Below are positions 1 through 46,966 of a stretch of DNA of 64,000 nucleotides, one piece after another; the first letter of the stretch is position 1; each line of letters starts with the position of its first letter. This DNA comes from a virus: IMG/VR virus record IMGVR_UViG_3300026484_000105, positions 45,993 through 109,992 of that record; one strand, written 5' to 3'. The notes under the pieces were generated by a model. That model searched no databases. It was not told where the DNA came from and saw only the letters and a program-made list of their open reading frames with translations. Made by a program: the position numbers and the translations under genes.

Positions 1-1047
1 ATTCTTGATGTAATCAATCTTATTAAGTTCCAAAAATATACGTATACGTTGCTCACCTTTAGATTCGCTACATAACGGACACCCAGCTTGTTTATGTATA
101 TGGTCATCAGGCGTAATTCTAAATTCACCATGTTTTTTACAAATTAATGTAACCTTAGTTTTCTTATTTGTATAATTAACCATACTATAATCATATCTAG
201 AACCGTGTAAATTTATAGCCTTCTCTATCCATTCTTTAGTAGTGTAGTTATAATTATTAGTACATTTAACACACTTAGCCCCATTATAATGGTTCCATGG
301 AATTTGTTCGAAATCACCATGTACCCTACATCTTATAGTAACCTTATTTTTTGAATTTATATATTTAGTTTTACTATAATCATATAGATCACCATGAACC
401 TTTCTCGAACGTTCTATAAATTCTTCTGTAGTTAATGTATCCTGTTCTACCCTACTTACGATACCGCATTGTTTACAGCCACTACCAGATATATGATGAA
501 ATCTGTTTTGTGTAAACTCACCATGTATCGGACAGATGATTTTTATACTACCATCCTTAACGCTATAGCTTTCTGGTATATATAAATACTTACCATTATG
601 CACTTTATTAGCTTTATCAATGAACTTCTTGGCCTTAGATAGAATCTTATTAATAGGAGTTATATAAGCGCATTTGGGACATCCCTGTCCTTTTATATGT
701 TTAGTTGGTTTTTGCTTAAACGGACCGTGTTCTTTACACTGTATAGTTACTGCAGTCCTTGCATCTATGAATTCAACTAATGTATAATTGTACCTATTAC
801 CGTGTGCTTCATGGGCCTTTAATAAGAAGGTTTCTTTTGTCATTCTTAATTTATCTTTAGCACATTCTCTACACCCTTGTTTATTCCGTATATGTGAAAA
901 TGGTCTTTGTTTAAAATCACCATGTATCGGACATGTGATTATTAGTGGTACGTCAGATAGTATGTACTCTGTTTTGTCGTACCTGTATTTGTTGTTATGT
1001 ACTTCTTTGGCTTTCTTTATAAAAGCTTCTGTTTTTGTTGTTTTCAT
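1..1047 (-). CDS. Putative homing endonuclease with five tandem zinc-binding repeats; partial, runs off the window start and is not in the ORF track
   Basis: Manual translation from ATG at 1047 (RBS AGGA upstream): MKTTKTEAFIKKAKEVHNNKYRY...CPIHGDF...GCREC. The unit F/WIxKAxxxHGxxYxY...CxxHGxF...GCxxC occurs five times, then CSESKGEQRIRIFLE, the usual start of the Vsr/PD-(D/E)XK-like nuclease domain in such proteins. The frame is open to position 1. Confidence 0.8.
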   Translation of the reverse strand, partial: MKTTKTEAFIKKAKEVHNNKYRYDKTEYILSDVPLIITCPIHGDFKQRPFSHIRNKQGCRECAKDKLRMTKETFLLKAHEAHGNRYNYTLVEFIDARTAVTIQCKEHGPFKQKPTKHIKGQGCPKCAYITPINKILSKAKKFIDKANKVHNGKYLYIPESYSVKDGSIKIICPIHGEFTQNRFHHISGSGCKQCGIVSRVEQDTLTTEEFIERSRKVHGDLYDYSKTKYINSKNKVTIRCRVHGDFEQIPWNHYNGAKCVKCTNNYNYTTKEWIEKAINLHGSRYDYSMVNYTNKKTKVTLICKKHGEFRITPDDHIHKQAGCPLCSESKGEQRIRIFLELNKIDYIKN

Positions 1048-1126
1048 TTTTTTCCTATTAGTTTATGTATGTAAATAATATGCGTTTATTATCTATTTCA
1101 CTCTAATAGTACCCGTAAAAAAATCA
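1..1126 (-). mobile_element. Probable intron (group I-like) or endonuclease insertion interrupting the vRNAP beta' gene; 3' end outside the window
   Basis: The upstream ORF stops at LGAD*, inside the (N/G)ADFDGD catalytic motif, and the endonuclease ORF starts ~77 nt later. The ribozyme core is not visible in the window. Confidence 0.6.
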
Positions 1127-2575
1127 ATCTGCGCCTAATAAATTTAGGTGGGTGAAGTGGGGTGATAACGAGTTCTGGTATGCCTCTGTTAATATCGGAT
1201 ATTCATAAACCGTATCAGCCTCTTTCCAATCTACTCCTAAAATGCTAACTTTTCTAGCCTTAACTGTTGTTTTTAGATAAGGTATACTTGGATATATTCC
1301 ACCTAGACCAGTAACAGGGTATCTAGTAAGAAAGCCAGGATATTTATCAACATCTTCATATACAGCTAAGTATATAAGTTCTGCATATGTTATCGGTCTT
1401 AAATATTTGGTATTTATATCATCAGGTATTTCATTAGTATTCTTAATAAACTTAACCTCTTTACCATTATCATATATTAAGGCTAGATAATAATCCTCAA
1501 CAGTTATAGGTTCAGATCTTAATTCATCTTGAGCTAATTTATTTATAACTCCATTAAGTCCTTCATCAGATGTCCACATGTCTTTTGTTTTTGGTTTTAT
1601 ATCTACATTTACTGTTCTCATAGATTTTTTATCTACAAGCATAGCTGTATTACTATGTAAATCAAATATGTTATTTAACATAAGATTATTTAACTGGTAC
1701 TTAGTAATGGGATTGATAGCTTTAGCATATTGATATAAACCTATAACAGTATTATTAAAACTAATTCTATTTTTAGTATTAGTTAAATCATGTATTACTG
1801 ATGGTACTGGTGTGATGACATTTCTGGTAGAATCTCTAAGAGCTCTCTTAGTCCACTTATTTTGTATAAATTTCTTCTTACCATCCATTAAAGAAATATA
1901 ATGATCGTATATCTCAACTATGATAGTTTGTATCTTAAATCTTATTGGATCTAATACCATAGGATCGTTATGTAGAGTAGAGATGTTTTCTAATGCATTT
2001 GTTGTGGTTAGTAGCCTCCTATAAACAGCATTTATTTCATCTTCACTTGGCTTACCATTATCATCAACAATATAATCCCTTAGTCCAGCAGGTATGACTA
2101 AAAAGTGATCTATGAGTATTTCACCCTTACTATATTTTTTAATAAGCTTTATTTTAAATTCCCTGGCATCACTACCATTACTATTTAATTTAATTTTATC
2201 ATACTTTTTCATAAAGAATTCGAAACCAGTATCTCCTTCTTCTGCATTAGAGGAAATGAAATCTCCACCTTTTTCATCCCATTTTGCATAAGTCTTACCA
2301 GATAGTATATCTAAATATAACTTTTTTAAACTTGAGATATGTTTAAAGACAAGTGGGTGTAGAACCTTTATATGTAATTTTATATAACCGAATTTATTAT
2401 TCCGTTCTTCACTTCCGACCCGACCGAAAGTCTCAGTAGAGAATAAACCATTAGTACTGAAGTTTTTAGTAGATGGTTCAAATATACTTAGGTCACTTAC
2501 TTCCCTCATTACACCTATCTGTTTTCTATTTAATAATAGTAAATCTATATTAAAAGGTGGTAAATTTGACAGCAT
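1124..2575 (-). CDS. Virion RNA polymerase beta' subunit (phiKZ gp180-like), 5' exon or fragment
   Basis: GLFSTETFG, FGYIKL, HPL, VIPAGLRD, RNVIT, RYP motifs; ends LGAD; divergent from a gp181-like gene as in phiKZ. Confidence 0.85.
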   Translation of the reverse strand: MLSNLPPFNIDLLLLNRKQIGVMREVSDLSIFEPSTKNFSTNGLFSTETFGRVGSEERNNKFGYIKLHIKVLHPLVFKHISSLKKLYLDILSGKTYAKWDEKGGDFISSNAEEGDTGFEFFMKKYDKIKLNSNGSDAREFKIKLIKKYSKGEILIDHFLVIPAGLRDYIVDDNGKPSEDEINAVYRRLLTTTNALENISTLHNDPMVLDPIRFKIQTIIVEIYDHYISLMDGKKKFIQNKWTKRALRDSTRNVITPVPSVIHDLTNTKNRISFNNTVIGLYQYAKAINPITKYQLNNLMLNNIFDLHSNTAMLVDKKSMRTVNVDIKPKTKDMWTSDEGLNGVINKLAQDELRSEPITVEDYYLALIYDNGKEVKFIKNTNEIPDDINTKYLRPITYAELIYLAVYEDVDKYPGFLTRYPVTGLGGIYPSIPYLKTTVKARKVSILGVDWKEADTVYEYPILTEAYQNSLSPHFTHLNLLGAD

Positions 2576-2644
2576 TGCTTTTCCTTTGATAATAATTTTG
2601 AATATTCAATTAAACGATACTTGTATAATAAATAAGGAGTTAAA

Positions 2645-5600
2645 ATGGCTGCAGTTGATGATATAGATTTAGACGATATGGACTTTGAAGATGACGATAT
2701 GGATTTCGGCTTCGATGATCCATTTTCAGAACCACCACCTCCCAAGGATACGAGGGAAGCAGTAAGTAGAACTATAAATAAAGTAGGAAGTAGTTTTATG
2801 GATGACTTTACTGACGATAAGGCTGAAACAGCTGCTGCATTCGTTAAAGAAAGTATTCCAAGTAAGATAAGTGTAGAAGCAAATAATATAATTAATGTTG
2901 GAGAATCATTTAAGAAAGATATCTTAAAGTCTAGTTCGGAAGTAGCAGAGGCTACTAAACCAATGTTAAAAGCTATTGAAGGGTTGGTTCCTAAGGGTGG
3001 TAAGATAGAAACCCTAGTTAATCTAGCTAAAGAAAAACTAGGTATGAACGATGAGCATCGTACTAGTGAAGATGTTGCTGCTGATGCTGCTGCGATGGCT
3101 ACTAGTTCAGTAGTTAACGTTTTAGGAGAGATGCAAGATAGAGATACTATAAGAGAAACTATAACAGCATCTATAGCCGACAAGAAGACACAATCTCAAT
3201 TAGATCTAAGTGCTATTCAGGCAGGACACCTAGAAGCGATAAGTAATTTTAATATAGATGTAACTAATAGTTTTTACAGGAAATCATTAGAATTACAATA
3301 TAGACATTTATTTACAACAACAGAACAACTAGATGTTACTAAACAGGGTTTCGAAACCTTTAAAAATCAATTAGAATCAATCGTTGCTAACAGCGCATTA
3401 CCAGATTTAGTTAAAACAAGAAATTCAGAATTTATGAAACACCGCTTATTAGAAAGAGCTGGTGAGAGTTTATTTGCCAGAACAGGTGTCTTTGATAATA
3501 TAAAGAAAAGACTATCCAATGAAGTACAGGGTGTAACATCCGTATTAACTAGCGGTATTACTAGTCTTGGTGATGCTGCTGACATGGTTAAAAGTACTAG
3601 TGAGATGTCTGCTATGGCTGGCGGTACTGAAGGGATGGTCGGAGGATTACTTGCTGGTGGAGTAAGAGGACTAGTAGGTACTAAAGTAGGTGACATATTA
3701 GGTAAGACTAAGGTTGGTAAAAAAGGTATAGAACTAGTAAGAAATTTTAATCTAGATCCTTCCGAAGCACTTAAAGATATGGCTGATAATAGACCAGATG
3801 GTGTATTTAAAAACATATTAGAAACTCTTGGTGATTTTACTGAAAATAAAGATGCTGAAGCATCATATTCCATTAATAAAGTAGATCGAGATAATGTCTC
3901 AGTATTTGATGGTAGAGCACATACTTCTTTAACTAAGATCATACCTGGACTTTTATCTAAAATCCTAAAAGAAGTTAGTAGTTCAAGAACTGGTAAAGAA
4001 GAAGATGAGTTACGATATGATTATGATACTGGTACTTTTAAAACTACTAGCAGCTTAAAAAATGAAATAACTGAGAAGATTCAAAATGACCTTGTCAGTA
4101 GTGGCGTTAACAGAAACGTTGAAGGTATCATTACAACTATCGTTGAAGAAACTAATCTTAACGTAGACGATGATGAGATAGCTGAAATAAAACAAGCACT
4201 CCTAAGTTATGTTATTAAAGGTAAAAGACTACTAGTTAACAAACTTGAAGAAGATGGTCTCTACGACGAATTAGATCCTAAGTTATCTAAAAAATTTAAA
4301 AAAGCTATAACTGATTTTACAGAAACTAAAGATGATGATCTAAATTATAAAAGAGTTAGGCACCTAAATAATGAATTAGGATATATAAAGGATAGAGCTC
4401 CGTCACCTCAAGAACTACTTAATAAGTATTCTGATGCAGGTAGTATTGATCTTCTAAAAGATGCAGGTATAGTAGAACTTGATAGTGTTACAGGTGAATA
4501 CAAATTAGATAACGCTAGTTATAAGACACATATGACTACTGCTATTAAAACAGCTAAAGATAAAGATCAAGAAGAGGAAGAAGAACCTAAGACGATAGCT
4601 GAGAAATTAGCTGAAAAATATATCAAAAAGAAAAAGAAAGATGTAGATTCTATAACTCAAGAAGAGGAAGAAGAAGCTCCTATAAATAAAGGTTTTATAA
4701 ATAGAGCTAAAGGTAAAGTCTCTTCATTTGGTGGTACGATAGAACAGGACATCATCAATACTATAGATGGTAAGCACGATATAGGTGGTAAAGCTAAGCG
4801 GTTTGCTAAAGAGGCTAACAAATATGTTACAGGTAAAGAGGATCTATCTGGTTACAAATTTAGCACTGAATCTAATCTAAAAAACAATTTAGCACCACAG
4901 ACTAAACGCCGATCATTATTGGGTGATTTCAAAACAGTTAAAACAGAATTATCTGAAATACATTCTGTAGATGACGCTTTAAATAAAGCCAGAAATATAG
5001 ATAATTTCAAAGATACTGAAAGTAAAATAAAAGCTATAAATGATTTAGTGTCTTCTAGTAAAGATCCAAAGGACTTTATAGAAAAAATAAAAGAAACTGA
5101 TGATTATAAAAAATTATCTACAGATATAAAAAATCATATAGATAAACTAGAAAGTAAAGTGCCTACCGTAAAAACAGAAGCAAAGAAATTTGTAGAAGAT
5201 AGGGTAAGCGATTTAAAGGATAATTCGCATTATAAAAATATAGTAGAATCTGATATAGTAAAAGATTCTAAAGCTAAAGCTAAAACCTTAGTAAAAACAG
5301 TAAAAGATAGTAAGATAGTTTCCGATATAAAAGATTCTGAACTTGCTAATAAAGTCACAACTGATATTACTCTATTAAAAGATAGAGTATCCAAACTTAC
5401 GGAACTAACTGATCTTAATAACATAGTTACAGAATTATGGACTAAGGCATCTGAACATTATGATTATCTGGAAACTTTGGAAGATACAAAAAGTAATAGG
5501 GCTAAGAAAAAGGAACTCTATAGATATATAAGATTTTTAGAGAATATAAGATTAGATAAGCTTGATCCTAAAGATGCTAAGTTAAAGGTATCTAAAGCTA

Positions 5601-8600
5601 CTGTTAAATTAGGTAAAATACTTCTAACCAAAACAGCAGAAACATTTACAGAAACATCTAAAGATAAAGTAAGTAAAATTATAACTTCTAGTAAAGACAA
5701 GATAGAAGAAATAAAAGATATAGATGTTAGTAAGGTAAAAGACATTAAGGTATCTGATGCTACGCAGTATGCTATGGATACTGTAGTGACTGCTAAGGTA
5801 AAAAGTAAGCAGTTAAAAGATGACTTTAAGAAAACTGAACTATATAAATCAGCAGAAGATAAATATAAAACAGTAGAAAGTTCCATTAGTAGTAAAATAG
5901 ATAAGACTATAACCGTTACTAAAAAAGCAGAAATATTATCAGAAGTGGATAATGTACTACTTGATAATATAATAAAAGTACAGAAGTCTAATGTAGATGA
6001 GGTACTTAAAAAAGAGAGAATAAGCAAACTAAACGAGTCTAGACAAAAAATAAAAGCAGCTGATGTAAGTAAACTAAGACCAAAAGATTTAACTAGACTA
6101 GTTAGTGATAGTCTAAGTCCTTTAAAAGACATAATTACAGCAGATATAAAAACAAAAGCTTTGGATGCAAAAGATAATATATCAAGCAAAAAAGACGAGT
6201 TTATAAGTAAAGTACAGGATAAGGTACCTGCATTAAAAACTACTGGTAACTTTTCAGAACAATTAACTACAGCTAAAACATATACTTTAGATAAAGTAGA
6301 TACCGTAAAAGATACTACAACTAATATATTGCCTGCAATACCCAATCCTAATTCATTTAGTATAAATGATATTAAGTTAAAAATAGTAGGCTTCTTAGAT
6401 AAATCTTTTAAAGAGTTGGAGAAAGTAGAAGACTATTTAAATAAGAATCCAGATGAGGCTAAAGATAATTCTGACAAAGTAAATAAGATTAGAAAGAATT
6501 TAGCTACATTAAGAAATACAAATCCAGAAGATAAAGAAACTGTATCTACTCTTACAAAAACAATTAAAGAGGATATAGAATCACTAGTAGATAAGATTCT
6601 ACCATCTGAAAAACTTAGTAAGACATATAGTGCTGAAGATATAGAAAAAGAAAGAGCTAAAGATAGAGCTAAAGAGAAAGAAAGTACCGAGAACAGTCTT
6701 TTAGATATAATTAATTCTGATGATCCGTTAGGTACTCTTAAGAATAAGCTTAAAAGGGCTGCAACCAGTAGGATAAAATCCACTGCTACAGGTGCAGTTA
6801 AAGCAGCATTTAATTTTATTAAGAGAGATGCTGAAAGAGGTAAAAGACTAAGAAGTTATCTTAAAAAGAAATTATTCAATAAGAAGAAAACAGGTCCAGG
6901 GATACTCCATAGATCCTTAAATAAAGTACTCAATGCGACAGGCAAGGTAATCACAACTGTAGGTACCACTGGAGCAAATGTCGTAAAAGCGGATATCGAT
7001 AATGGTGAGAAACTAAGGGATAAATTAAAGAATCTATTTAATAAAAAGAGGAATACAGAAACTATAAAGGAAGATGTTCCTGCAAATAGAATAGATTATA
7101 AAGAAGAAAAGAAAAATGGTCCTGGTATAGTTGGGTCAGCAAATAAAGTAAATTCTGCTTTTGATAGGGACGGGTCTGGTCATAGAGATGGGTCATGGTT
7201 GGACAGACTTAAGAAAAAGAAAGATGTGCTTAAAAATAAGAATAAAACATTTTTAGCTAAAGCAAAAGATAGTAGTTTTAGTTGGTTGCCTATATTATTA
7301 GGAGCTTTTAGTTTTATTAAGCCGTTATTGAGTAAGTTGGTATCTGGAATAAAGAATCTTGGTAGTTTTATTGTTAAGGGTATTGGTAAGGCATTTAAGT
7401 CAGTTGGTAGTTTTCTATTAAATGGTATAAAAGGTATATTCGGTAGTCTTGGTAAAATGTTGGCTGGTCCATTGAATGCAGTAAAAGATGTAGCCTCTAA
7501 GGGTCTAGATAAAACTAAAGAATTAGCCAGTAAAGCAGCCGACAAAGTTAAGGGTATAGGTGCTGCTGTATATAATAAAGCTAAAACCTTCGGAAGTAAA
7601 GTAATTAATGGTATGAAGAATACCAAGGGTGGTAAACTTATTGCTAATGGTATTAAAACTACCAAAGATGCTATAACAAGTGTTGGCAGTAAAGCTATAA
7701 GTACTTTGGAAAATAGTAGAGTTGGAAAAGCTACTACTAAACTTGTTGGTAAAGCAGTAGAAAAGGTTCCCACTAAAAGCATCCTTAATTTATTGAAATC
7801 GTTTAAGTCTACAATATTTAAAAAGCTAGGTAAACGAGCAGGTAGTAAAGTTGCTGCTAAATTGGCTGCGAAAACTGCGGCTAGAGTCATTCCTTTTGCA
7901 GGTACTGCATTGTTGGCATATGATGCGGCTAAGATAGGTTATGATATGTTCCATAATGGTACTAGTCTTAAGAGTGCTATTTCTAAACAGATACTTGGTT
8001 TTGATTTATTTGGAGATGAGGCAGCTAAAGATGAAGATGGCAATCTTATTAAACCAGATGAAAAGGGTGTGACGAAGTCTAGTACTGGCGATCACATTGA
8101 TACAGAAAGAAAAGAGAGCAATAAGGAAACAGCTAAGGTTAAAGATGGGGATTCCATTAAACCAAATGAAAAGAGGGTAAAGAGATCCATTGTAAAAAGA
8201 CCTCCTGTAAAGAGATCCAGTACCGATGACTACATTGATGCTGAAAGAAGAGAGGACGATAAGGAAGCTGCTAGAATTGAAAGGGAATTAGTGAATAAGA
8301 AATTTACTGTAAAATCTAGAGATGTTATTGTAGATAAGTATGGTTCTACTATAAGAACGAGATCCAAAAAAGAGTTAATCGCAAATCCAGATGTCGATTC
8401 TAAAGGGGCAAATGGCATTAATAAAGTAGGTGGATCACCTGTTAAGATGGGAGGAATTAAAAACAAAGTTCTACCAATGACCCCTATTAATAATGAAAAA
8501 TTCAAACCTGTTTCAAAATACGATATTCTTAATTCGTTAGCTATTATACAAAAACAAATAGAAGTAGATAGGGGAAAACTCAAAAAGAGAGTAAACACAA

Positions 8601-10120
8601 ATGGCAAGATGGGAATGCTTAATGCGTCATCTTGGGTATTAGGTAGCATTATAGACGAGGTTAGCAATATACCAGACGGTCCTAACTTTACAATTAAGCT
8701 TAATGAGTTAGATAAGGATATGATTGATGTTGCGTCTTCTACCTTGGCTAGATATCCTAAAATAGATCTTAAAGCCATATTTAAGACAGGTAGAGTACAA
8801 AAGCTACCTAAACCAATTATAGAGAAAGAAGAAGTAAAAGAAAAAACTAGCGTATTTGATAAAGGATTAAATCTTTTAAATAAGGCTAAGAATAAAATAA
8901 CTTCATTCTTTGGTTTCAATTCAGATAAGAAGAAAGAAGCAACAAAAGATATTATATCTAATAATAAAAATAAGAAAGTAGGGACTGTAGCTAAAATAGA
9001 TAAGTTACCAGTTAATACAGGTGATTTAGTTAGTGACCTTAAAAGGGATGAGGGCGTAGTTCTACATACATATAAAGATAGTCTAGGTTTAAAAACCATA
9101 GGTACTGGTCACTTAGTAGATAAAAAAGGTGGTATTCCTTTACGTAAGATAATTGGTGAAGACAAAGATAAAATATCTATGGAGGAAAATGATTATATTT
9201 TACAATATGATATAGGTCAAGTTAGTAAAGATTTATATTCTAGGTTACCATGGCTTAAAGATAAGCCAGATAATGTACAGAAGTCATTAGTTAATATGGC
9301 CTTTAATCTTGGCGTTGACGGGTTACTTAAATTTAAAAATACTTTAAAAAGTATAAAGAATGATGAGTACACGAATGCTTCTAGAGGAATGCTTAATAGT
9401 AAATGGGCTAGACAAGTTGGTAACAGAGCTACTAGATTAGCTAGTATAGTTGCGTCTACAGAGTATGATTCTAACAGTACATCTAAGACTGAGAATAAAA
9501 CAGATAGTTCAGTTGCAAGTAAACCATCTATGAAATTAGCATCCAAAGTAAAAGATGTTGTGAGTCCTAGTAATAATGTTACTTATAATAAAGCTGGAAC
9601 AACTACCGTAAGATTTAATGGTAAAGATTTAAAATTAACTAAACAGCAAGCATCTGTTTTAAGTAATTTTAAGGCAAACGGTAAAACACAGGATGCTCTT
9701 AGTCTATTATCAAATATATCTAATGGACATAAAACAGATAGTCTAGTTAGTGTAGATAAAGATACTAATAAACAAAGAATATCTAAGACGTTAGCTATGA
9801 ATAGTGATACTAATAAGGTAATGTCTGTTGAAAGCAATAAAACACTTAGTGCTGTTGCAGAACATGGTGCAATACAAACAGATGAACTAAAAGCACTTAA
9901 TACCACAATGAAGACATCTCTTGAAATACAAAAAGAGACACTTAATGTAATTAGAGAGATGGTTGGTCATACTGGTAAGATAGTTGAACATAATAAAGAT
10001 AGTACTGCAGAGGGTGGTAGTGGTCAGAAAGAACACGAGCATCCAAATAAAGCAGTGCCAGCAATAGAAAAAGAAGTACCACAACCAGGTATCTTTTTAG
10101 AGAAAAGAAAATACGCATAA
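2645..10120 (+). CDS. Tail-associated lysin / tape-measure-like protein (phiKZ gp181-like) with a T4-lysozyme-like (GH24) domain near the C-terminus
   Basis: 2491 aa, long helical K/A/G-rich regions, conserved YRKSLELQYRH and NSALPDLVK block; DLKRDEGVVLHTYKDSLGLKTIGTGHL...NSKWARQVGNRATRL at ~9030-9450; RBS AAGGAG. Confidence 0.85.
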   Translation: MAAVDDIDLDDMDFEDDDMDFGFDDPFSEPPPPKDTREAVSRTINKVGSSFMDDFTDDKAETAAAFVKESIPSKISVEANNIINVGESFKKDILKSSSEVAEATKPMLKAIEGLVPKGGKIETLVNLAKEKLGMNDEHRTSEDVAADAAAMATSSVVNVLGEMQDRDTIRETITASIADKKTQSQLDLSAIQAGHLEAISNFNIDVTNSFYRKSLELQYRHLFTTTEQLDVTKQGFETFKNQLESIVANSALPDLVKTRNSEFMKHRLLERAGESLFARTGVFDNIKKRLSNEVQGVTSVLTSGITSLGDAADMVKSTSEMSAMAGGTEGMVGGLLAGGVRGLVGTKVGDILGKTKVGKKGIELVRNFNLDPSEALKDMADNRPDGVFKNILETLGDFTENKDAEASYSINKVDRDNVSVFDGRAHTSLTKIIPGLLSKILKEVSSSRTGKEEDELRYDYDTGTFKTTSSLKNEITEKIQNDLVSSGVNRNVEGIITTIVEETNLNVDDDEIAEIKQALLSYVIKGKRLLVNKLEEDGLYDELDPKLSKKFKKAITDFTETKDDDLNYKRVRHLNNELGYIKDRAPSPQELLNKYSDAGSIDLLKDAGIVELDSVTGEYKLDNASYKTHMTTAIKTAKDKDQEEEEEPKTIAEKLAEKYIKKKKKDVDSITQEEEEEAPINKGFINRAKGKVSSFGGTIEQDIINTIDGKHDIGGKAKRFAKEANKYVTGKEDLSGYKFSTESNLKNNLAPQTKRRSLLGDFKTVKTELSEIHSVDDALNKARNIDNFKDTESKIKAINDLVSSSKDPKDFIEKIKETDDYKKLSTDIKNHIDKLESKVPTVKTEAKKFVEDRVSDLKDNSHYKNIVESDIVKDSKAKAKTLVKTVKDSKIVSDIKDSELANKVTTDITLLKDRVSKLTELTDLNNIVTELWTKASEHYDYLETLEDTKSNRAKKKELYRYIRFLENIRLDKLDPKDAKLKVSKATVKLGKILLTKTAETFTETSKDKVSKIITSSKDKIEEIKDIDVSKVKDIKVSDATQYAMDTVVTAKVKSKQLKDDFKKTELYKSAEDKYKTVESSISSKIDKTITVTKKAEILSEVDNVLLDNIIKVQKSNVDEVLKKERISKLNESRQKIKAADVSKLRPKDLTRLVSDSLSPLKDIITADIKTKALDAKDNISSKKDEFISKVQDKVPALKTTGNFSEQLTTAKTYTLDKVDTVKDTTTNILPAIPNPNSFSINDIKLKIVGFLDKSFKELEKVEDYLNKNPDEAKDNSDKVNKIRKNLATLRNTNPEDKETVSTLTKTIKEDIESLVDKILPSEKLSKTYSAEDIEKERAKDRAKEKESTENSLLDIINSDDPLGTLKNKLKRAATSRIKSTATGAVKAAFNFIKRDAERGKRLRSYLKKKLFNKKKTGPGILHRSLNKVLNATGKVITTVGTTGANVVKADIDNGEKLRDKLKNLFNKKRNTETIKEDVPANRIDYKEEKKNGPGIVGSANKVNSAFDRDGSGHRDGSWLDRLKKKKDVLKNKNKTFLAKAKDSSFSWLPILLGAFSFIKPLLSKLVSGIKNLGSFIVKGIGKAFKSVGSFLLNGIKGIFGSLGKMLAGPLNAVKDVASKGLDKTKELASKAADKVKGIGAAVYNKAKTFGSKVINGMKNTKGGKLIANGIKTTKDAITSVGSKAISTLENSRVGKATTKLVGKAVEKVPTKSILNLLKSFKSTIFKKLGKRAGSKVAAKLAAKTAARVIPFAGTALLAYDAAKIGYDMFHNGTSLKSAISKQILGFDLFGDEAAKDEDGNLIKPDEKGVTKSSTGDHIDTERKESNKETAKVKDGDSIKPNEKRVKRSIVKRPPVKRSSTDDYIDAERREDDKEAARIERELVNKKFTVKSRDVIVDKYGSTIRTRSKKELIANPDVDSKGANGINKVGGSPVKMGGIKNKVLPMTPINNEKFKPVSKYDILNSLAIIQKQIEVDRGKLKKRVNTNGKMGMLNASSWVLGSIIDEVSNIPDGPNFTIKLNELDKDMIDVASSTLARYPKIDLKAIFKTGRVQKLPKPIIEKEEVKEKTSVFDKGLNLLNKAKNKITSFFGFNSDKKKEATKDIISNNKNKKVGTVAKIDKLPVNTGDLVSDLKRDEGVVLHTYKDSLGLKTIGTGHLVDKKGGIPLRKIIGEDKDKISMEENDYILQYDIGQVSKDLYSRLPWLKDKPDNVQKSLVNMAFNLGVDGLLKFKNTLKSIKNDEYTNASRGMLNSKWARQVGNRATRLASIVASTEYDSNSTSKTENKTDSSVASKPSMKLASKVKDVVSPSNNVTYNKAGTTTVRFNGKDLKLTKQQASVLSNFKANGKTQDALSLLSNISNGHKTDSLVSVDKDTNKQRISKTLAMNSDTNKVMSVESNKTLSAVAEHGAIQTDELKALNTTMKTSLEIQKETLNVIREMVGHTGKIVEHNKDSTAEGGSGQKEHEHPNKAVPAIEKEVPQPGIFLEKRKYA

Positions 10121-35670: not shown

Positions 35671-36476
35671 TGTTCCTCCTCAATAGGATCCAAATTATAC
35701 TTAGGTATGGAATATGCTTTCTTTTCTTCCATATCTAGGATCGAATATAAACCAGATTTGAGTATCTTAATGAACCCAACCTTCTTACCGATCAGTTCTC
35801 TATGGGTCATACCCAGATCTCTACTGCCATTGACAGTAAAATACTTTATATCATCGAGTATGAGATCTACAATATTACTTTCAGTTTTCCATGTTAACCA
35901 ATATTGATGCTCCTGGAATGTTCCTTCAGAATCTACATTAACAATATACTCTACATCCAACATAGTGTAACAGTACGGACATATAACTCTATGGTTATAG
36001 GGCTTGTGCTCTATGAGAGGAGATATATCATTATTGCAATTATCACATTCTATCTTAATGTCCTCAAGATCCCTAGATTTTATCTTTTCAATAACTGTAG
36101 TACGTGCGTTACTAGTATCTTTACTGCGAACCATAAGTTCTATATCAACATCTTGTTCGCCACCATCATGACGTTTAGAGTAAAACTTTTTACCACCCAT
36201 CAGATCTATAAGATCAGCTTCACTAGCTTTTTTTTCTTTTATTTTGTCAAGTACTTTTTGCACTTTTCTAACCTTTTCTAATAGTGACTTGTCTAGAGGT
36301 GTTTGTATTACACCTTGCAAATCAACAATACTTACTTCAAATCCATCAGTACCCATGGCTTCAGCCACGGTACTTTTAAGTTCTTCCATAAATTCATCTG
36401 GAGTTTGTTTGGATTGTGAAACTATCTTTATACCACCAACTACTTTCTGTTTAAGGTCTTCCATGATTAATTCCAT
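35667..36476 (-). CDS. Hypothetical protein with a zinc ribbon
   Basis: CDNC...CPYC. Confidence 0.6.
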   Translation of the reverse strand: MELIMEDLKQKVVGGIKIVSQSKQTPDEFMEELKSTVAEAMGTDGFEVSIVDLQGVIQTPLDKSLLEKVRKVQKVLDKIKEKKASEADLIDLMGGKKFYSKRHDGGEQDVDIELMVRSKDTSNARTTVIEKIKSRDLEDIKIECDNCNNDISPLIEHKPYNHRVICPYCYTMLDVEYIVNVDSEGTFQEHQYWLTWKTESNIVDLILDDIKYFTVNGSRDLGMTHRELIGKKVGFIKILKSGLYSILDMEEKKAYSIPKYNLDPIEEEQ

Positions 36477-37165
36477 GCATAAAGATTATTACTGATATAG
36501 CCGCATGTAGCGATAATCTCTTTTTCCATAATTGCTCTACCAGCTATAAGTTCAAGACTTGTTGCATCTACATAGTAATCTTTCTCTTCAGCAAACTCCA
36601 TAAGATCATCTGGTAATATAACATGATCTATCCAACCATCAAACCCTTTAAGTATTTCAACCTTATGATCAGGATGAACTAAATATAACCTATACCATTT
36701 ACAAGTATTCTCTACAGTTATAACTGGTTTATCAGCTTTGGTATGTCTATATACTAAGGGTACATTGCCTTTGGTGCTATAGTACGTAGTATAGTCATTG
36801 TCTATGGTTAGACCTATAAGTATATCTAAGGCCTTAAGTGCGTTGAATTTAACATTAGTGTCGGCACCCTTTAATACCTCTTTTATACTGCCCTCTAATG
36901 GACTTAACATATGTAAATGTTTATATTGATTTATTGTCTCTCCAGTTGACAAGTTAAATATCTTATAACACCGATGTTCAGATGCACTATTTTCCAATTT
37001 ACAAGAATCTGGTTCTAATACTATTATTAAATCACCAGATTCATTTTGTTTATAAACTACATGTCCAAATTTAATTATATCGCCATTGGCATCCAAATGT
37101 CCAATGCATTTTCTACCATTATAATATAAACAACCGTCTCTTATTTCAGTATTTGCTTTTTTCAT
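36467..37165 (-). CDS. Hypothetical protein (weak YopX-like motif)
   Basis: Start reassigned to ATG 37165 after AAGGA; GHLDANGDIIKFGHVV resembles YopX GLKDKNGKEIYEGDIV. Confidence 0.55.
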   Translation of the reverse strand: MKKANTEIRDGCLYYNGRKCIGHLDANGDIIKFGHVVYKQNESGDLIIVLEPDSCKLENSASEHRCYKIFNLSTGETINQYKHLHMLSPLEGSIKEVLKGADTNVKFNALKALDILIGLTIDNDYTTYYSTKGNVPLVYRHTKADKPVITVENTCKWYRLYLVHPDHKVEILKGFDGWIDHVILPDDLMEFAEEKDYYVDATSLELIAGRAIMEKEIIATCGYISNNLYAWN

Positions 37166-37175
37166 TTTATTCCTT

Positions 37176-37871
37176 TTAGTATGCTGTTGGTATCCATTTT
37201 CTACCACCGTAGAAGTCCTCTTTAACACGTAATCTAATTTTAGGTATATAGTAATTCTCATTCAGATCTCTAACATAGTCCTTAACGTCACTTATAAGGG
37301 TATCGTAACTATCCGATTCAAGTTCATATATTGTACGTGGCATAAGGTATGATTGAGTAAGTTCAGATTTCCAATCTCTGATCCCACCATCTGTAAAAGG
37401 TACTTTCACCTCTGCCCTATATACTCCATCCAATTTATGAATAACGGCCCATACGAAGACATCATTATCGTAGTCGGGTGTAGTTTCATCATCAAGGTTT
37501 GACGTAGTTTCCCTTTTATTTGGACTGCTTTTTTCCTTAGCTCCCTCAACTATAGCACAAATGATTTGACAGATTTCATCTGTATTCAAATTTGTTGCTA
37601 TTGGCTTATCATCAGTCCTAATACTTTTTTCTACAGTGGTATAGTCGGTAGTCCATATTTTTATACCTAATGTTTTGGATATCATACTCATAACCTTAAC
37701 TCTACGCACATTTGTAAGTAGTTCAGAAATAGGTTTAAAGTAATTAAACTCAACTCTATAATACACCCTACCCTTAAACCAAGCTTTCTCCTCTACGAAA
37801 ACATCAACATTGTCTTTTATAGCATTTGTAACTATATTAGTTACCATCATTTTTGTATTTAACTTTTTCAT
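37176..37871 (-). CDS. Hypothetical protein
   Basis: 231 aa in operon. Confidence 0.6.
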   Translation of the reverse strand: MKKLNTKMMVTNIVTNAIKDNVDVFVEEKAWFKGRVYYRVEFNYFKPISELLTNVRRVKVMSMISKTLGIKIWTTDYTTVEKSIRTDDKPIATNLNTDEICQIICAIVEGAKEKSSPNKRETTSNLDDETTPDYDNDVFVWAVIHKLDGVYRAEVKVPFTDGGIRDWKSELTQSYLMPRTIYELESDSYDTLISDVKDYVRDLNENYYIPKIRLRVKEDFYGGRKWIPTAY

Positions 37872-38520
37872 TTTTCTTTCCTATTATACTTGATATTACC
37901 TCATGTAATAATTTTGTATCATCTACACAATATTTCATTAATTTATCACCAGACATATTAAAACAGTCATTAGCCTCACCAACATGTTTTATTCCTCTAC
38001 CGAGTTCAGCTTTAGCCATATCATTCAGACCAAATGCTAATTCATGTTCTTCAAGATTGTTATAAAATGTGTTCATATCCATAAACTTAAAATTAGTAGG
38101 CAATTCAACCGTATATGTATAATTCCATATTTCTAATGGAGATGCCTTTTTATCATTCATGCCTGTTCTGTCTATAACGATACTTACGTCCTTGTCAGGG
38201 TATTTACTATCTGGATCTACCAAATGTCTAAGCGATACACCTAATGTCTCAGCACGTCTACTTATAGTATTTAAGAACGCATCTAAAAAGCTAACTAAAA
38301 CATAATCATAATCTAAACTATCTAATGTTCTAAAGAAACTTTGTATCATAGATTCCTCATCAGGGAAATCTTTGATATTAAATATGAAAGTACTATCGCA
38401 TGGGCTGTTATCTTTTACGATAACAAACCCATATAATGGACCGACACCTAAATTTTCTCTTATAACAGAATACTCGAAATCAATTGCTGCTATCTTACTA
38501 TGTTTATTTACATCATACAT
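37837..38520 (-). CDS. Stand-alone, degenerate DnaQ/PolB-type 3'-5' exonuclease domain
   Basis: IAAIDFE (ExoI), FPDEESMIQSFF, FMDM, FGLNDMAKAELG, KYCVDD (ExoIII); ExoII region degenerate (SFLDAFL). Confidence 0.65.
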   Translation of the reverse strand: MYDVNKHSKIAAIDFEYSVIRENLGVGPLYGFVIVKDNSPCDSTFIFNIKDFPDEESMIQSFFRTLDSLDYDYVLVSFLDAFLNTISRRAETLGVSLRHLVDPDSKYPDKDVSIVIDRTGMNDKKASPLEIWNYTYTVELPTNFKFMDMNTFYNNLEEHELAFGLNDMAKAELGRGIKHVGEANDCFNMSGDKLMKYCVDDTKLLHEVISSIIGKKNEKVKYKNDGN

Positions 38521-38531
38521 TTAAACCTCTC

Positions 38532-39143
38532 TTAATTTATTTTAGAATCAGACATAAAACCTACCATTAAGGCCTTGAATGATCTGAATTCTGAAAGTTC
38601 TTCTTCTAATCTTTTACTGGTTATAAACAGTCCAATTGCGGCGATCACCTGGTTGCTAACTTTACCACTATAAATAGATGACCTAATGCTACTTTCGCTA
38701 ACGCCTACTATCTTACCTAAATCAGCATATGTTAGGAGATAATCCTTGCACACCTGTTTTATTAAAGCTTTACCCTCATTGTTAATTCTAGGCTCCGTTT
38801 GTTCTGCAGTATCACTGTCATAGACATTATCTAGAAGTAGGGCCAATTTCATATTTCTACAATGCTTTACGCCAATACCATAATTTATATTAGAATAATC
38901 AAATTCATATTCTAGAATTTCATTACGCATAGTTAATAAGGTTAATAAGGCCTTTTCGTATGTCATTATTTGATGATTACCTTCATAATCGGATATTCCT
39001 ACCATAATTGTTTTACGTAGTTTACTTCTTATCTTAAGTTTCAAGCAAACATTCTTACAATTTATGGATGATGTATATCTATTTATAGTAATGTATGTAT
39101 ATCCTGTGTTCGTTCGTTTCATACTTCGTCCATCTATTCGCAT
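38532..39143 (-). CDS. Protein with a C-terminal XRE-type helix-turn-helix
   Basis: LIKQVCKDYLLTYADLGKIVGVSESSIRS followed by a short coiled coil. Confidence 0.7.
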   Translation of the reverse strand: MRIDGRSMKRTNTGYTYITINRYTSSINCKNVCLKLKIRSKLRKTIMVGISDYEGNHQIMTYEKALLTLLTMRNEILEYEFDYSNINYGIGVKHCRNMKLALLLDNVYDSDTAEQTEPRINNEGKALIKQVCKDYLLTYADLGKIVGVSESSIRSSIYSGKVSNQVIAAIGLFITSKRLEEELSEFRSFKALMVGFMSDSKIN

Positions 39144-39188
39144 CTTATTTCTCCTATTTATTTACTTATCCCACTCATTTGAGTTTTC

Positions 39189-40250
39189 TTAGATTTCCTT
39201 ATTTAAAATCTTAGTTACAATATTAGAACCAACTTCACCTTTTTTGTCATATACTAATCTAGTAAATACATCACCAACTGTTCCAGCTTGTAAGTAATCA
39301 CTAGTTGAAATAAGACTACCTGCATATCTAATCTTTTCTATATTACCAGTAAAGTAAACCGTCTTCTTATCCTTATGAAACAAAGCATACGTTGCAACAG
39401 ATGCCCACGCATGTGATTTATAACCAGGTATATGTATGATTATTACTTTAGCATTGTCTACTTTAGTAAGTATGTCATTCTTAGCCTCTTCGAGGCCGTC
39501 AAGATTATATGCTACTGATCTACGTTCTGTTTGAAGTTTACAATCATATGCATATTTAGCAGTGGGATCACGCTTATCATCAAGGCGTTCTTGCATCTCC
39601 TTTTTAATAGCTGAGACTTTACCAGATACTTTCGTAAAGAACTTATTAACAGATACTTTACCCTCTAGATTAGCTCTCTTAATCTCAGCTTCAAGTTCTT
39701 CCATTCTGGAAGCAGTACTATTTCTAATTGACGTTTGACCATAGTAGAATATGATGGCATCTTTAGGTTCTTTCTTACTAAGAGCCTCCTCACGCTGTTG
39801 ATTTAGTTTAATAGCCAAATTATCTACACCAATATTATTGGCAATACTATGCGCTCTGAAGGTTAATGCTGCACCTTGTCCATCGTTTAAACCAGTTGGC
39901 AACATACCAGTTACTAAATAATTTATCCCGTAATACCCTTCAATAAGTAGAACTATTTCAAAGTCTGATGATTTAGTTTCTGGCTTAATTGGCATACTGA
40001 AAATTTCATGTAACTTAGTATAGATATTTATGAAATTATCATTACCAGGTAACGTCATTAGATCATTATGGTACACATCTAAATGTACCGACCCAATCAT
40101 ATTCTTGATGTCTTCAAACTTAATACCGTTATCAAATATTGAATCACCAATCTTAATAACGTTAACAACACATGTACCAGTTGTTTCATCCATACGTCTA
40201 TTGTCATGCGTAGGTACTCTAAAGTAATTTTCTATTAGATCCAGTTCCAT
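39189..40250 (-). CDS. Hypothetical early protein
   Basis: Start reassigned to ATG 40250 after AAGGAG; first gene of the 40.3-32.5 kb cassette. Confidence 0.65.
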   Translation of the reverse strand: MELDLIENYFRVPTHDNRRMDETTGTCVVNVIKIGDSIFDNGIKFEDIKNMIGSVHLDVYHNDLMTLPGNDNFINIYTKLHEIFSMPIKPETKSSDFEIVLLIEGYYGINYLVTGMLPTGLNDGQGAALTFRAHSIANNIGVDNLAIKLNQQREEALSKKEPKDAIIFYYGQTSIRNSTASRMEELEAEIKRANLEGKVSVNKFFTKVSGKVSAIKKEMQERLDDKRDPTAKYAYDCKLQTERRSVAYNLDGLEEAKNDILTKVDNAKVIIIHIPGYKSHAWASVATYALFHKDKKTVYFTGNIEKIRYAGSLISTSDYLQAGTVGDVFTRLVYDKKGEVGSNIVTKILNKEI

Positions 40251-40279
40251 ATTAAACTCCTTGTTTATCATTGTATTTA

Positions 40280-40322
40280 TTGATACTACCATGTATCTAC
40301 TATAATAATATACGATTGAAAA
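40280..40322 (-). promoter_or_regulatory. Early promoter plus conserved leader hairpin, copy 3
   Basis: TTTTCAATCGTATATTATT then TAGATACATGGTAGTATCAA. Confidence 0.8.
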
Positions 40323-40396
40323 TATTTTGAAAATAAAACTTTAATGGCAAACATATGCTTGATGAATAATAAGATAAGTAAATAAAAGGATAAAAT

Positions 40397-41833
40397 ATGG
40401 CTATTAAATTTAATGTACCAAAACCAAGACAGGCCAGGGTACTAATTAATATTGGTGCATCTTTTGACATCCCTACTGGATTTCCAGTTACTGGTGCTAA
40501 AGGAGAAACAATTTGGAATGGTGGAATCGGTTTAACTACTGGAGTTATTGGTAGAAGTAATAACTTTAAATCATCAATCATGCACTATATGATGTTATCT
40601 GCGGCTGATAAAATAGCCTATACAAATGAAACTTCAATGCACCTTTATGATACTGAGGTTACTGCTATACCTGAAAGGCTTGATGAATTAGGTCATAAGT
40701 TTGAGAACCTTGGTTCAGATATTGCTACAAGAGAAGACCCACCTTTGGTTATAACAGATAAATCACAATATGCTGCTGATGAGTGGTCTGCATTACTTAA
40801 GGACTTTTTAGCTGAAAAAGAAAAGAGTAAGGATTCTATTATAGACTATACTCCATTTAAAGATCCAAATACTAAGGGGATGCTTAGAACACAGGTTCCT
40901 ACATTTGTTGAGATTGATTCACTATCTGAATTTGAAGCTGGTACTACTATAGAGATGCTTAATAAAAATAGAACAGATGATTCATCTACAAATACGTTGT
41001 TCATGAGGCAAGCTCTATTTAAAACCAAGTTCTTAGCAGAGTTACCAAGACTTACTACAAATAGCAATACATTCTTTTTCATGACTGCACACCTTGGTGA
41101 AGAGATAGCAATGGGTGGTGGTCCTTATTCTCCTGGTCCAACTAAGAAACTACAGTTCTTAAAAATGGGTGATAAGATTAAAGGTGTATCTGATAAGTTT
41201 CTATTCCTTATGTCCAATGCATGGTACGCGTCAGGCGTTACGGTATTAAAAAATCAAACAACTAAGTTACCAGAATACCCAGCTGATAATAAAGCGGAGT
41301 CTACTGAAACAGAGTTGCAGATAGTTAGACTCACGCAACTTAGAAGTAAATCTGGTATATCTGGCTATACATTAGATATAGTAGTTTCACAAAATGAGGG
41401 AGTTCTTCCTACACTTACAGAGTTTCACCAAATTAAAACGAATGGTAGATTTGGTATAAGTGGTAGTAATATCAGCTATAATTTAGATCTTCTTCCAGAA
41501 GTTAAACTTGGTAGAACCACAGTTAGAAGTAAGATAGATAATAATCCTTTATTAAGAAGAGCTATAAATATAACTAGTGAACTTGCTCAGTTACATAAAT
41601 TTCATCCTAAGTTAGCTGAAGAAGAGTTATTATGTACTCCTATGGAGTTATATGAAGATATAAAGAAACTAGGTTATGATTGGGAGATATTGCTAAATAG
41701 TAGAGGTTGGTGGACTCCTAATAACTATAAAACAGAAATACCTTTCTTAAGTACTATGGACCTTCTTAAGATGAGAAAGGAAAGATATGTGCCTTATTGG
41801 TATCCAAAAGATAAATTAAAAGGAGACAAGTAA
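40397..41833 (+). CDS. uvsX: UvsX/RecA-like recombinase (phiKZ gp152-like)
   Basis: NIGASFDIPTG, Walker A GRSNNFKS, YDTE, Walker B FVEIDS, MTAH, RSKSG. Confidence 0.8.
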   Translation: MAIKFNVPKPRQARVLINIGASFDIPTGFPVTGAKGETIWNGGIGLTTGVIGRSNNFKSSIMHYMMLSAADKIAYTNETSMHLYDTEVTAIPERLDELGHKFENLGSDIATREDPPLVITDKSQYAADEWSALLKDFLAEKEKSKDSIIDYTPFKDPNTKGMLRTQVPTFVEIDSLSEFEAGTTIEMLNKNRTDDSSTNTLFMRQALFKTKFLAELPRLTTNSNTFFFMTAHLGEEIAMGGGPYSPGPTKKLQFLKMGDKIKGVSDKFLFLMSNAWYASGVTVLKNQTTKLPEYPADNKAESTETELQIVRLTQLRSKSGISGYTLDIVVSQNEGVLPTLTEFHQIKTNGRFGISGSNISYNLDLLPEVKLGRTTVRSKIDNNPLLRRAINITSELAQLHKFHPKLAEEELLCTPMELYEDIKKLGYDWEILLNSRGWWTPNNYKTEIPFLSTMDLLKMRKERYVPYWYPKDKLKGDK

Positions 41834-42058
41834 TGTGGTTTATATCTAAAGAGATTATATTCTATATTAAATATAAAACCATGAAATTCATTACTAATTT
41901 AAATAATTATTTAACACCTAGATAATGTTAGTGGTACAGGAGGGTATCCTGGGTGTAGTTTGGACATAGTGCCCCATAAAGGGGTTAAAAGTAAAGTTAA
42001 TAGATATCCTATAATGGAAACTAAATTAAACATTAATGAAATATAAAAGGAAGTTTAA

Positions 42059-42487
42059 ATGGCTGTAAGTGAGAATTTTGGTACAGTAGATATGTCTACT
42101 CCTAAGAATATGGAGGTTAATAAACCAAAGGTTAATGCATTAAGCATTTTCAATACCCCAAGAGTTGAGGGTGAACCAGACCTAGTTGCAATTATAAATA
42201 AAGAACTATGTACAATTTATGGGGATGTTGCAGGCGCTATGTTTGTTAATAGTGCAGATATAGTAAATATAAAAGATCTCAATCCTATATCGCAACGCAT
42301 TATTATAAATAGATGGTTTACTACAGCTCTATTTATTTATCGTTCTATAAATAATGATAAAGATGTTAATGAGATTTTGTTACATATCATTAATGACGGC
42401 ACGGTTAACGAGTGGAAAGATCAACTAACCCTAGTTGTGATAGAATTCTTTAAAATAAGAAATGTTCTTGGTATAGCTAAAAGCTAG
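42059..42487 (+). CDS. Hypothetical phage protein
   Basis: 142 aa, AAGGA RBS. Confidence 0.6.
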   Translation: MAVSENFGTVDMSTPKNMEVNKPKVNALSIFNTPRVEGEPDLVAIINKELCTIYGDVAGAMFVNSADIVNIKDLNPISQRIIINRWFTTALFIYRSINNDKDVNEILLHIINDGTVNEWKDQLTLVVIEFFKIRNVLGIAKS

Positions 42488-42517
42488 TTAATTTGATAAT
42501 ATAAAAAGGATTGAAGA

Positions 42518-43330
42518 ATGAATGAATCTAATCATAATTTAAGATACGCTAAAGTATTAAACAATGAAGATGATAAAGTAGACAATAATAGAACAGTAGC
42601 AATTAAGGTTTTAGGTACAAGTCCCATTGTAGCAGGTGTTTATGTAGATAGAATAACTGGTAAAAATGGTTCAGATTATGGTACGTTAAGTACAATCAGT
42701 ACAAATACACCACGATTGGATAAAGATCATAAGAACTTCTTATTTGACGACACCAAAGATGAAGAGGGTAATTTAAAATACCCAGATAGATTTAAATATC
42801 TTGGTGTAGCTCAGAGTATCATTAGTAAATTATATGTTACGATTTATTATGATAATCTATTTAAAGATATTCTTATTATTCCAGATATGGAAACACTTGG
42901 TACTGATGATGTAGGTATAGATTTTTATGAAAACAATACTATTACGTTAGTAGCATATAGTGTCGGTAGAGGTGATTTTAAAGAACGCCCAGAAAAGTCA
43001 ATAATGCAACCTTTATATGTAGATAATACTGATGGTATACCTGAACCAGATAAGTTTGATAAAACAACTACATTGCTGGTATCTACATTTGGTTTAAGTA
43101 TTAATTCTACATTAAGTAGTAGATTTATAACTTTGGATGATAATAATACCGTTAGTAGTGAAAAAGGTGTGCCTTTACAATATATTCAATTACCAAACAA
43201 TGATGACATATTTGAAGATGGTACTCTAGTTGCTACTAATAATATGATACAACAATTTCATGATGGGCTATGTATAGATTATGTTGGTATGAAAAAAATA
43301 GAAAAAATAGTTATACCTATAGTGTTCTAG
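42518..43330 (+). CDS. Hypothetical phage protein
   Basis: 270 aa, AAGGA RBS. Confidence 0.6.
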   Translation: MNESNHNLRYAKVLNNEDDKVDNNRTVAIKVLGTSPIVAGVYVDRITGKNGSDYGTLSTISTNTPRLDKDHKNFLFDDTKDEEGNLKYPDRFKYLGVAQSIISKLYVTIYYDNLFKDILIIPDMETLGTDDVGIDFYENNTITLVAYSVGRGDFKERPEKSIMQPLYVDNTDGIPEPDKFDKTTTLLVSTFGLSINSTLSSRFITLDDNNTVSSEKGVPLQYIQLPNNDDIFEDGTLVATNNMIQQFHDGLCIDYVGMKKIEKIVIPIVF

Positions 43331-43339
43331 GAGAATGAC

Positions 43340-44032: not shown

Positions 44033-44063
44033 CTATGTATGGGTATAACCCATACATAGTTAT
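44029..44063. terminator. Bidirectional hairpin
   Basis: ATAACTATGTATGGGT-ATA-ACCCATACATAGTTAT. Confidence 0.7.
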
Positions 44064-44074
44064 CTTTACTTCTT

Positions 44075-46915: not shown

Positions 46916-46966
46916 TTTTTTCTTTCCTTAATATATTTATATAAACCAAAATAAAGGACTTTATAC

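Follow-up and report, generated by a model that had tools for sequence, protein, structure and literature searches.

Group I introns have been described before in virion RNA polymerase (RNAP) genes of phages. An intron at gp180/gp179 of phiKZ was predicted by Mesyanzhinov et al. 2002, going by the later papers that cite it (PMC10914365, PMC11512511). The gp210 intron of phiPA3, which codes for an HNH nicking enzyme, lies in the beta gene (gp211/209, the homologue of phiKZ gp178) after the residue that corresponds to D675 of E. coli RpoB (Birkholz et al. 2024, PMC11620839). Here, we analyzed a stretch of 64,000 nucleotides (nt), hereafter called the window, which corresponds to bases 45993-109992 of the 109,992-base IMG/VR virus record IMGVR_UViG_3300026484_000105 (~41% complete according to CheckV). 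In this source genome, the gene for the virion-RNAP subunit beta'N, the phiKZ gp180 orthologue, was found to be interrupted at its catalytic motif, ADFDGD. The genes of interest are all on the minus strand and, therefore, run on past window coordinate 1. The locus L001 covers bases 36001-48600 of the record (G000:C1), and a window coordinate equals the L001 coordinate minus 9992. It was compared with L003 (IMGVR_UViG_3300026484_000087), an independent IMG/VR contig with a 79% identical beta'N, and with the loci of phiKZ (L008), Goslar (L009), VP4B (L010), phiKp_32 (L011), and ACP1 (L012).

Our results indicate that a 1999-nt group I intron very probably interrupts beta'N within the codon for Phe in ADFDGD. 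This intron has P7.1/P7.2 (subgroup IA-like), and an intact gene for a homing endonuclease is located in its P1 loop. The whole intron, as delimited by the match to the Rfam model RF00028 and by the splice join, spans L001 9119-11117 on the minus strand (record 45119-47117). Its first 1125 nt are found in the window (1..1125, minus strand). The remaining 874 nt are before the start of the window and hold the guide, P2, the P3-P9 core, and omega-G (L001 9119).

On the minus strand, window 1138-1124 reads TTA GGC GCA GAT TGA. The beta'N reading frame (window 1124-2575, minus strand) encodes 483 amino acids (aa) and ends in ...HFTHLNLLGAD*, that is, after the first Asp of ADFDGD, just as a preliminary description of the window had stated. 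This frame matched phrog_2986 'RNA polymerase beta subunit' over profile positions 3-484 of 539 (E 4e-164) and, therefore, is missing ~55 C-terminal residues. It also matched the phiKZ gp180-type beta' piece in 313 phage records of phiKZ-like phages (tblastn). Exon 1 (window 1126..2575, minus strand) consists of the 483 codons and the first base of the Phe codon, with the U at 1126 as its last base. The in-frame TGA (window 1124..1126, minus strand) lies over the 5' splice site (GAU U|GA), as read from the sequence. The same stop-at-splice-site design was seen in L003 (GAU U|AA), phiKZ (GAU|UAA), phiKp_32 (GAU|UGA), and VP4B (GAU|UAA), and the break after GAD was also found in L003 (...RLGAD*) and phiKZ.

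An Rfam scan of window 1-3000 gave no intron match because the intron core is outside the window. When the 12.6-kb locus was scanned, the speed filters missed the beta'N intron and a second intron, in the beta gene, was detected. A 521-nt scan recovered the beta'N intron, with RF00028 matching L001 9167-9455 on the minus strand at 42.5 bits (E 1.5e-9 when L001 9080-9600 was scanned alone, and E 7e-11 in a genome search). Textbook group I elements were found after the endonuclease stop, namely AAUUGCUGGAAA, GUUCAACGACUA, and GAUAUAGUCU. Both GUUCAACGACUA and GAUAUAGUCU (P7) are identical across six introns at the DFDGD motif. The P7 helix GACUA/UAGUC is invariant in these 6 related introns, and P3 (CAAAUUG/UGGUUUG), P4, P6, and P8 were also read.

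Exon 2 (L001 8952-9118, minus strand, 57 codons) is the conserved frame that follows omega-G. The frame begins FDGDKCSYVILHTKEAIDEL and ends in LSW*, and the region as a whole reads ...VDGDKCSYVILHTKEAIDEL...AKTLSW*. An ungapped alignment matches it to the 57 C-terminal residues of the intron-less FLC4-4C gp40. This uninterrupted protein ends ...LLNADFDGDTSSANALY... and has 57 residues after AD, as in exon 2. The preliminary description had advised a search of the adjacent sequence for an FDGD exon and a group I core (RF00028), and both were present. It had itself missed exon 2, the core, and omega-G because they lie beyond window coordinate 1. The atypical intron that it considered can be set aside, since the FDGD exon, the P3-P9 core, and omega-G are all found upstream of that coordinate.

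The join ...GCA GAU U | intron | UU GAU GGU GAU yields GADFDGD, and the 3' junction reads ...GGCAACG|UUGAUGG. No join other than GAUU|...G|UU combines a U at -1 and a G at omega with the conserved frame in the source genome as well as in L003. The spliced product is 538 aa long, which is the length of the intron-less FLC4-4C gp40 (538 aa). The two proteins align over 7-537 with 40% identity. Against the spliced phiKZ gp180, the alignment covers 1-537 with 35.7% identity, and ADFDGD is in register in both comparisons. The phiKZ-type counterpart of the ligated-exon sequence is GAUUUCGAC. Other joins were tried and rejected: GAU|...C|GUU gives ADVDGD and needs a C at omega, UUAUU|...GG|CAAC gives LFNVDGD with the first Asp lost, and GAU|...ACG|GAU gives GADDEGNVDGD and is impossible in L003.

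The preliminary description had reported no convincing P1 or guide pairing at the junction. This holds for the window, where none is visible, but a guide, GAUC, does exist ~1.5 kb into the intron, 38 nt before AAUUGCUGG and directly ahead of P2 and P3. The guide forms the codons Leu-Ile within the last 11 codons of the endonuclease frame. The whole endonuclease gene is, therefore, looped out of P1, with its end overlapping both the guide and P2. GUCC is found 37-39 nt before AAUUGYYGG in phiKZ, Goslar, VP4B, and phiKp_32, where it is followed by the P2 hairpin and then P3. Measured from P4, the GAUC of the source genome is as far away as GUCC is in phiKZ, Goslar, and VP4B. The introns of the four named phages are cut after GAU, where GUC pairs with GAU with a wobble at the U. 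The source genome and L003 have GAUCC at the guide position and are cut one base later, after GAUU, where GAUC pairs with GAUU with the wobble at the last U. The predicted splice site and the guide have changed together, the former by one base and the latter between GUCC and GAUC. On the intron side of P1, GAUUU at +1 to +5 pairs with AAAUU beside the guide, giving 9 contiguous pairs in total. Position +1 is A-U in L003 versus G-U in the source genome. When guides of at least 5 bp were searched for, the matches (the 3' strand of P3 among them) were all due to chance and were rejected on topology.

The intron leader, on the 5' side of the P1 loop (window 1048..1125, minus strand), was defined from the sequence and is 81% identical to the L003 stretch. 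It contains a local hairpin, CUAUUAG...CUAAUAG, and an AGGA ribosome-binding site 7 nt before the endonuclease ATG. Intron nt 15-27 (UACUAUUAGAGUG, window 1099-1111, minus strand) pair at 12 of 13 positions with CACUAUAAUAGUA in the P5 extension (L001 ~9378-9390). This pairing was considered as P2 and dropped, as L003 keeps 11/13 with no compensation. The local hairpin competes with it, and it may be a tertiary contact or a product of chance in A+U-rich RNA.

MAFFT aligned the P5 region of five whole 3' halves poorly and, therefore, covariation was read from the close pair of source genome and L003 and from the P7-P9 part. Over the 515 nt from the guide to omega-G, the close pair differs in 46 columns, with double changes in eight base pairs, single changes that preserve the pairing in nine, and no broken pair. 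The pairs were predicted from the two compared sequences themselves, so the covariation count is somewhat favoured; even so, the zero broken pairs are telling. Across the six introns, double changes were found in 18 of the 28 predicted pairs, and P3 differs in sequence between lineages while being complementary in each. The source genome and L003 are 92% identical from P3 to the 3' end of the intron, compared to 74-76% in the exons and 86% in the next gene. The 92% intron identity would fit either tight constraint or a more recent exchange. The anatomy of the interruption, its homology to other introns, the covariation of its RNA helices, and the conservation of exon 2 in the right frame are all direct observations.

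From the sequence, we infer that the intron splices itself and that its endonuclease is active on a target in related phages. After transcription, the exon end AGAUU would pair with the guide GAUC 1.5 kb downstream, an external guanosine would attack after the wobble-paired U, and omega-G would set the 3' splice site. Ligation of the exons would restore GADFDGD in the 538-aa subunit. In this predicted scheme, the catalytic subunit beta'N would be incomplete until the RNA is spliced. By stopping ribosomes at the first intron bases, the in-frame UGA over the splice site would keep them off the unspliced ribozyme. The five DUF723 zinc ribbons of the endonuclease would read DNA, and its Vsr/I-Bth0305I-type domain would be the nuclease. 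The enzyme presumably cuts intron-less alleles of the conserved stretch in co-infecting relatives, and repair would then copy the intron in (homing).

Several results count against a splicing group I intron. The RF00028 score of 42.5 bits is below the gathering cut-off of 50 bits because the open reading frame separates P1/P2 (the P1 loop is 1.5 kb); the ~270-nt P5 extension is also beyond the model. The exon contributes only 4 bp to P1, the GAUC guide does not come first by duplex energy in this A+T-rich RNA, and no clear candidate for P10 was found in the intron. Also, a long-read transcriptome study saw no evidence of splicing of the phiKZ intron under its conditions (PMC10914365).

Another possible explanation is a gene in pieces, which was the fallback of the preliminary description. 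Each half would then be translated on its own, the two would assemble one composite active site, and the endonuclease gene between them would be free-standing, as in Aeh1 nrdA/mobE. Exon 1 does have its own stop codon, an in-frame GTG lies 19 codons before FDGD in the source genome, and phiKZ-type polymerases already consist of split beta/beta' pieces (PMC8287921). However, that GTG has no ribosome-binding site and is inside P9, and exon 2 itself lacks both a start codon and a ribosome-binding site. The frame upstream of exon 2 is closed in L003 by a TAG 10 codons before FDGD. A full group I core with compensatory changes in its helices lies between the pieces, and only the exact splice join yields a canonical DFDGD in a protein as long as the intron-less one. 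With a ribozyme between the pieces and a second piece that lacks translation signals, we consider separate translation very improbable.

It is also highly doubtful that the insertion no longer splices and that the phage uses another polymerase copy. The Rfam score under the cut-off and the study that saw no phiKZ splicing would agree with a dead intron, and the incomplete record leaves room for a second copy elsewhere. Against this, exon 2 has kept its frame and most of its protein sequence even though the two phages share only 74% identity at the DNA level, and the ribozyme helices have 8 double changes with no broken pair. The preliminary description would have regarded the gene as a pseudogene if no FDGD continuation and an intact paralogue were found; the continuation was found, and a second copy of beta'N was not seen within the 110-kb record. 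Moreover, the subunit is a virion component in phiKZ (PMC8287921). A false stop from an assembly or sequencing error at window 1124-1126, also raised in the preliminary description, can practically be dismissed. The record is a metagenome-derived virus contig, but what interrupts the gene is a structured sequence of 1999 nt and not a single base, and the same break and layout are present in L003 and the cultured phages phiKZ and Goslar.

The endonuclease gene of the intron (L001 9591-11039, minus strand) has 482 codons, of which 1-349 are in the window (1..1047, minus strand). Its ATG is at window 1047, 76 nt past the beta'N stop, and its intact frame runs off the start of the window. The preliminary description had a zinc-repeat endonuclease gene begin ~77 nt on, and five CxxH...CxxC repeats are indeed present within the window part. 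They matched Pfam DUF723 (53 bits) and are DUF723/CapR-like zinc ribbons. Repeats of this type have been described as DNA-reading modules of phage homing endonucleases, where their partners were T5orf172 nucleases and not a Vsr-like domain (PMC10448857). The protein also matched phrog_559, phrog_681, and phrog_9084, whereas its Pfam DUF4379 and DUF559 matches were sub-threshold. An NCBIfam search gave no match, and phmmer against the PDB found nothing real.

The nuclease domain is aa 330-482, outside the window, and has 428 short relatives, several of which are labelled 'very-short-patch-repair endonuclease' by their source. Seven residues are family-invariant and all present in the endonuclease, namely D31, E42, D44, H48, D68, K71, and R84 (domain numbering). 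Of these, D31, E42, D44, H48, D68, and K71 are invariant in 28 relatives and are candidates for the counterparts of the catalytic residues of I-Bth0305I and Vsr. The domain's match to Pfam DUF559 reached an E of only 0.008. A single-sequence AF2 model was unusable (pLDDT 35), and a model built on the family alignment had a pLDDT of 83, with values >90 over residues 1-100. I-Bth0305I is encoded in a group I intron of recA in Bacillus phage 0305phi8-36. When compared to this enzyme (PDB 3r3p), the model gave a VIA Z of 12.0 and an rmsd of 2.7 over 93/97 residues with 16% identity, and Foldseek gave a probability of 1.0 with an E of only 0.01. The comparison to Vsr (1cw0) gave a VIA Z of 11.1. 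The endonuclease is unrelated to phiKZ gp179 (BLASTP E 4.5). Thus, homologous introns carry different nucleases in the same loop, and the L003 intron carries none.

The L003 intron (L003 6451-7116) is 666 nt long, is at the same site as the intron of the source genome, and has kept the ribozyme. A 1333-nt deletion in the endonuclease gene has left the first ~15 codons, with the ATG changed to ATA, and the last ~20 codons. The ends of the deletion are at CCAAA(A)G repeats. This intron resembles the 'endonuclease lost' stage of the homing cycle. Together, the source genome and L003 provide two natural forms of one intron, one that has the endonuclease gene and one that has lost it.

Intervening sequences were found at five points in or next to the DFDGD codons across chimalliviruses. 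They lie after the first Asp (D1) in phiKZ and Goslar, one base further on in the source genome and L003, after the second Asp (D2) in phiKp_32 (380 nt, RF00028 37.5 bits), after the Gly in ACP1, and after the third Asp (D3) in VP4B (482 nt, RF00028 51.2 bits). The 258-nt intervening sequence of ACP1 had no Rfam match and is a candidate intron. Many close relatives of phiKZ, such as PA7 and 14Ps5-6, have an uninterrupted beta'N. We tentatively suggest, short of favouring it, that the 15 nt coding for DFDGD in chimallivirus beta'N are a hot spot. One lineage, with the guide GUCC and a cut after GAU, may have settled after each of the three Asp codons (D1 in phiKZ/Goslar, D2 in phiKp_32, and D3 in VP4B) and slid by one base in the source genome with a change of guide, its endonuclease being exchanged (HNH vs zinc-ribbon/Vsr-like) or lost. 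If the endonucleases are weapons between co-infecting phages, as is phiPA3 gp210, this could be an arms race at the active site of the polymerase.

Beta'N probably belongs to the virion set, going by its best matches and by the gene order lysin (gp181-like)/beta'N/beta as in phiKZ. A 2491-aa protein with a lysozyme-like C-terminal part is encoded divergently from beta'N at window 2645-10120 on the plus strand. It is the counterpart of phiKZ gp181, a tail-associated endolysin, and of FLC4-4C gp41. This lysin gene beside beta'N gives the shared gene order that supports the virion-set assignment. On the other side, L001 8315-8857 (minus strand) directly follows exon 2 and has a sub-threshold match to nucleoside 2-deoxyribosyltransferase (PF05014, 25.5 bits vs a cut-off of 28.8). 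This gene and three more separate beta'N from beta, whereas the two are adjacent in phiKZ and FLC4-4C.

The second group I intron of the source genome, in the virion RNAP beta gene, is at L001 1576-2136 on the minus strand (record 37576-38136), ~7.9 kb before the window. It is 561 nt long with no open reading frame, and its RF00028 score of 63.9 bits is above the cut-off. The join AGG U | ... G | UA AAC gives DDPKRLNFINIQ. The phiPA3 gp210 intron is located at an Asp-Asp pair, and the join lies 3 codons and 1 base past that pair. The P9.2-like hairpin of the beta intron, CAUAGAGUAACGAUCUAUG, recurs almost unchanged in the beta' intron of L003.

Gene callers and the phiKZ RefSeq record list a truncated beta'N without two of the three Mg-binding aspartates. 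In that record (NC_004629), gp180 is annotated as 490 aa ending in GAD. We found that gp180 (...APLGAD*) is followed by gp179 (HNH_3), an RF00028 match of 92.2 bits, and then ...AACG|UUC GAC GGG GAC. The second exon, 61 codons that start with FDGDTVSFNAVY (L008 4207-4392, ~186160-186345), is unannotated in RefSeq. Goslar has a homologous intron (RF00028 67.7 bits), which its record NC_048170 annotates as Intron_gpI. The locus described here adds a second endonuclease family to this known intron site. The one-base slide of the splice site with its guide change and the exchange of cargo provide material for the study of mobile introns in jumbo phages and of phage-phage competition.

These comparisons place the intron among known systems. 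Its endonuclease resembles I-Bth0305I in the fold of the nuclease domain and in being an intron-encoded phage enzyme, but the identity is only 16% and the DNA-binding part consists of five DUF723/CapR-type zinc ribbons. Like Aeh1 nrdA/mobE, an endonuclease gene interrupts an essential gene at a conserved site. Unlike in that system, the endonuclease gene is flanked by a ribozyme, RNA splicing is predicted to unite the exons, and the second piece has no translation signals. The phiPA3 gp210 intron, which the preliminary description cited, is a sound precedent. In this nucleus-forming jumbo phage, a group I intron that carries a homing endonuclease is inserted at conserved Asp codons in the catalytic region of a virion RNAP gene. 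However, it sits in beta and not in beta' (PMC11620839). The likeness makes a role in phage-phage competition plausible. An endonuclease-bearing insertion in the catalytic motif of the virion RNAP beta' was correctly recognized in the preliminary description, and its comparison with phiKZ-type introns was apt, given the homologous intron that phiKZ carries at this motif. The phiKZ gp180/gp179 and Goslar gp205/gp206 introns share with ours the gene, the catalytic motif, and a homologous ribozyme with almost no differences in P4, P7, and the base of P9. They also share an endonuclease gene in the P1 loop that ends next to the guide and P2, and the neighbouring gp181-like lysin gene. The intron of the source genome differs from them in a splice point 1 nt further 3' (GAUU| vs GAU|), the guide GAUC instead of GUCC, an endonuclease of DUF723 repeats and a Vsr-like domain instead of HNH_3, a ~270-nt extension in the P5 region, and a host protein of ~36% identity. 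It is, thus, an intron of the phiKZ gp180/gp179 type in a distant uncultured relative, a known arrangement and no new kind of element.

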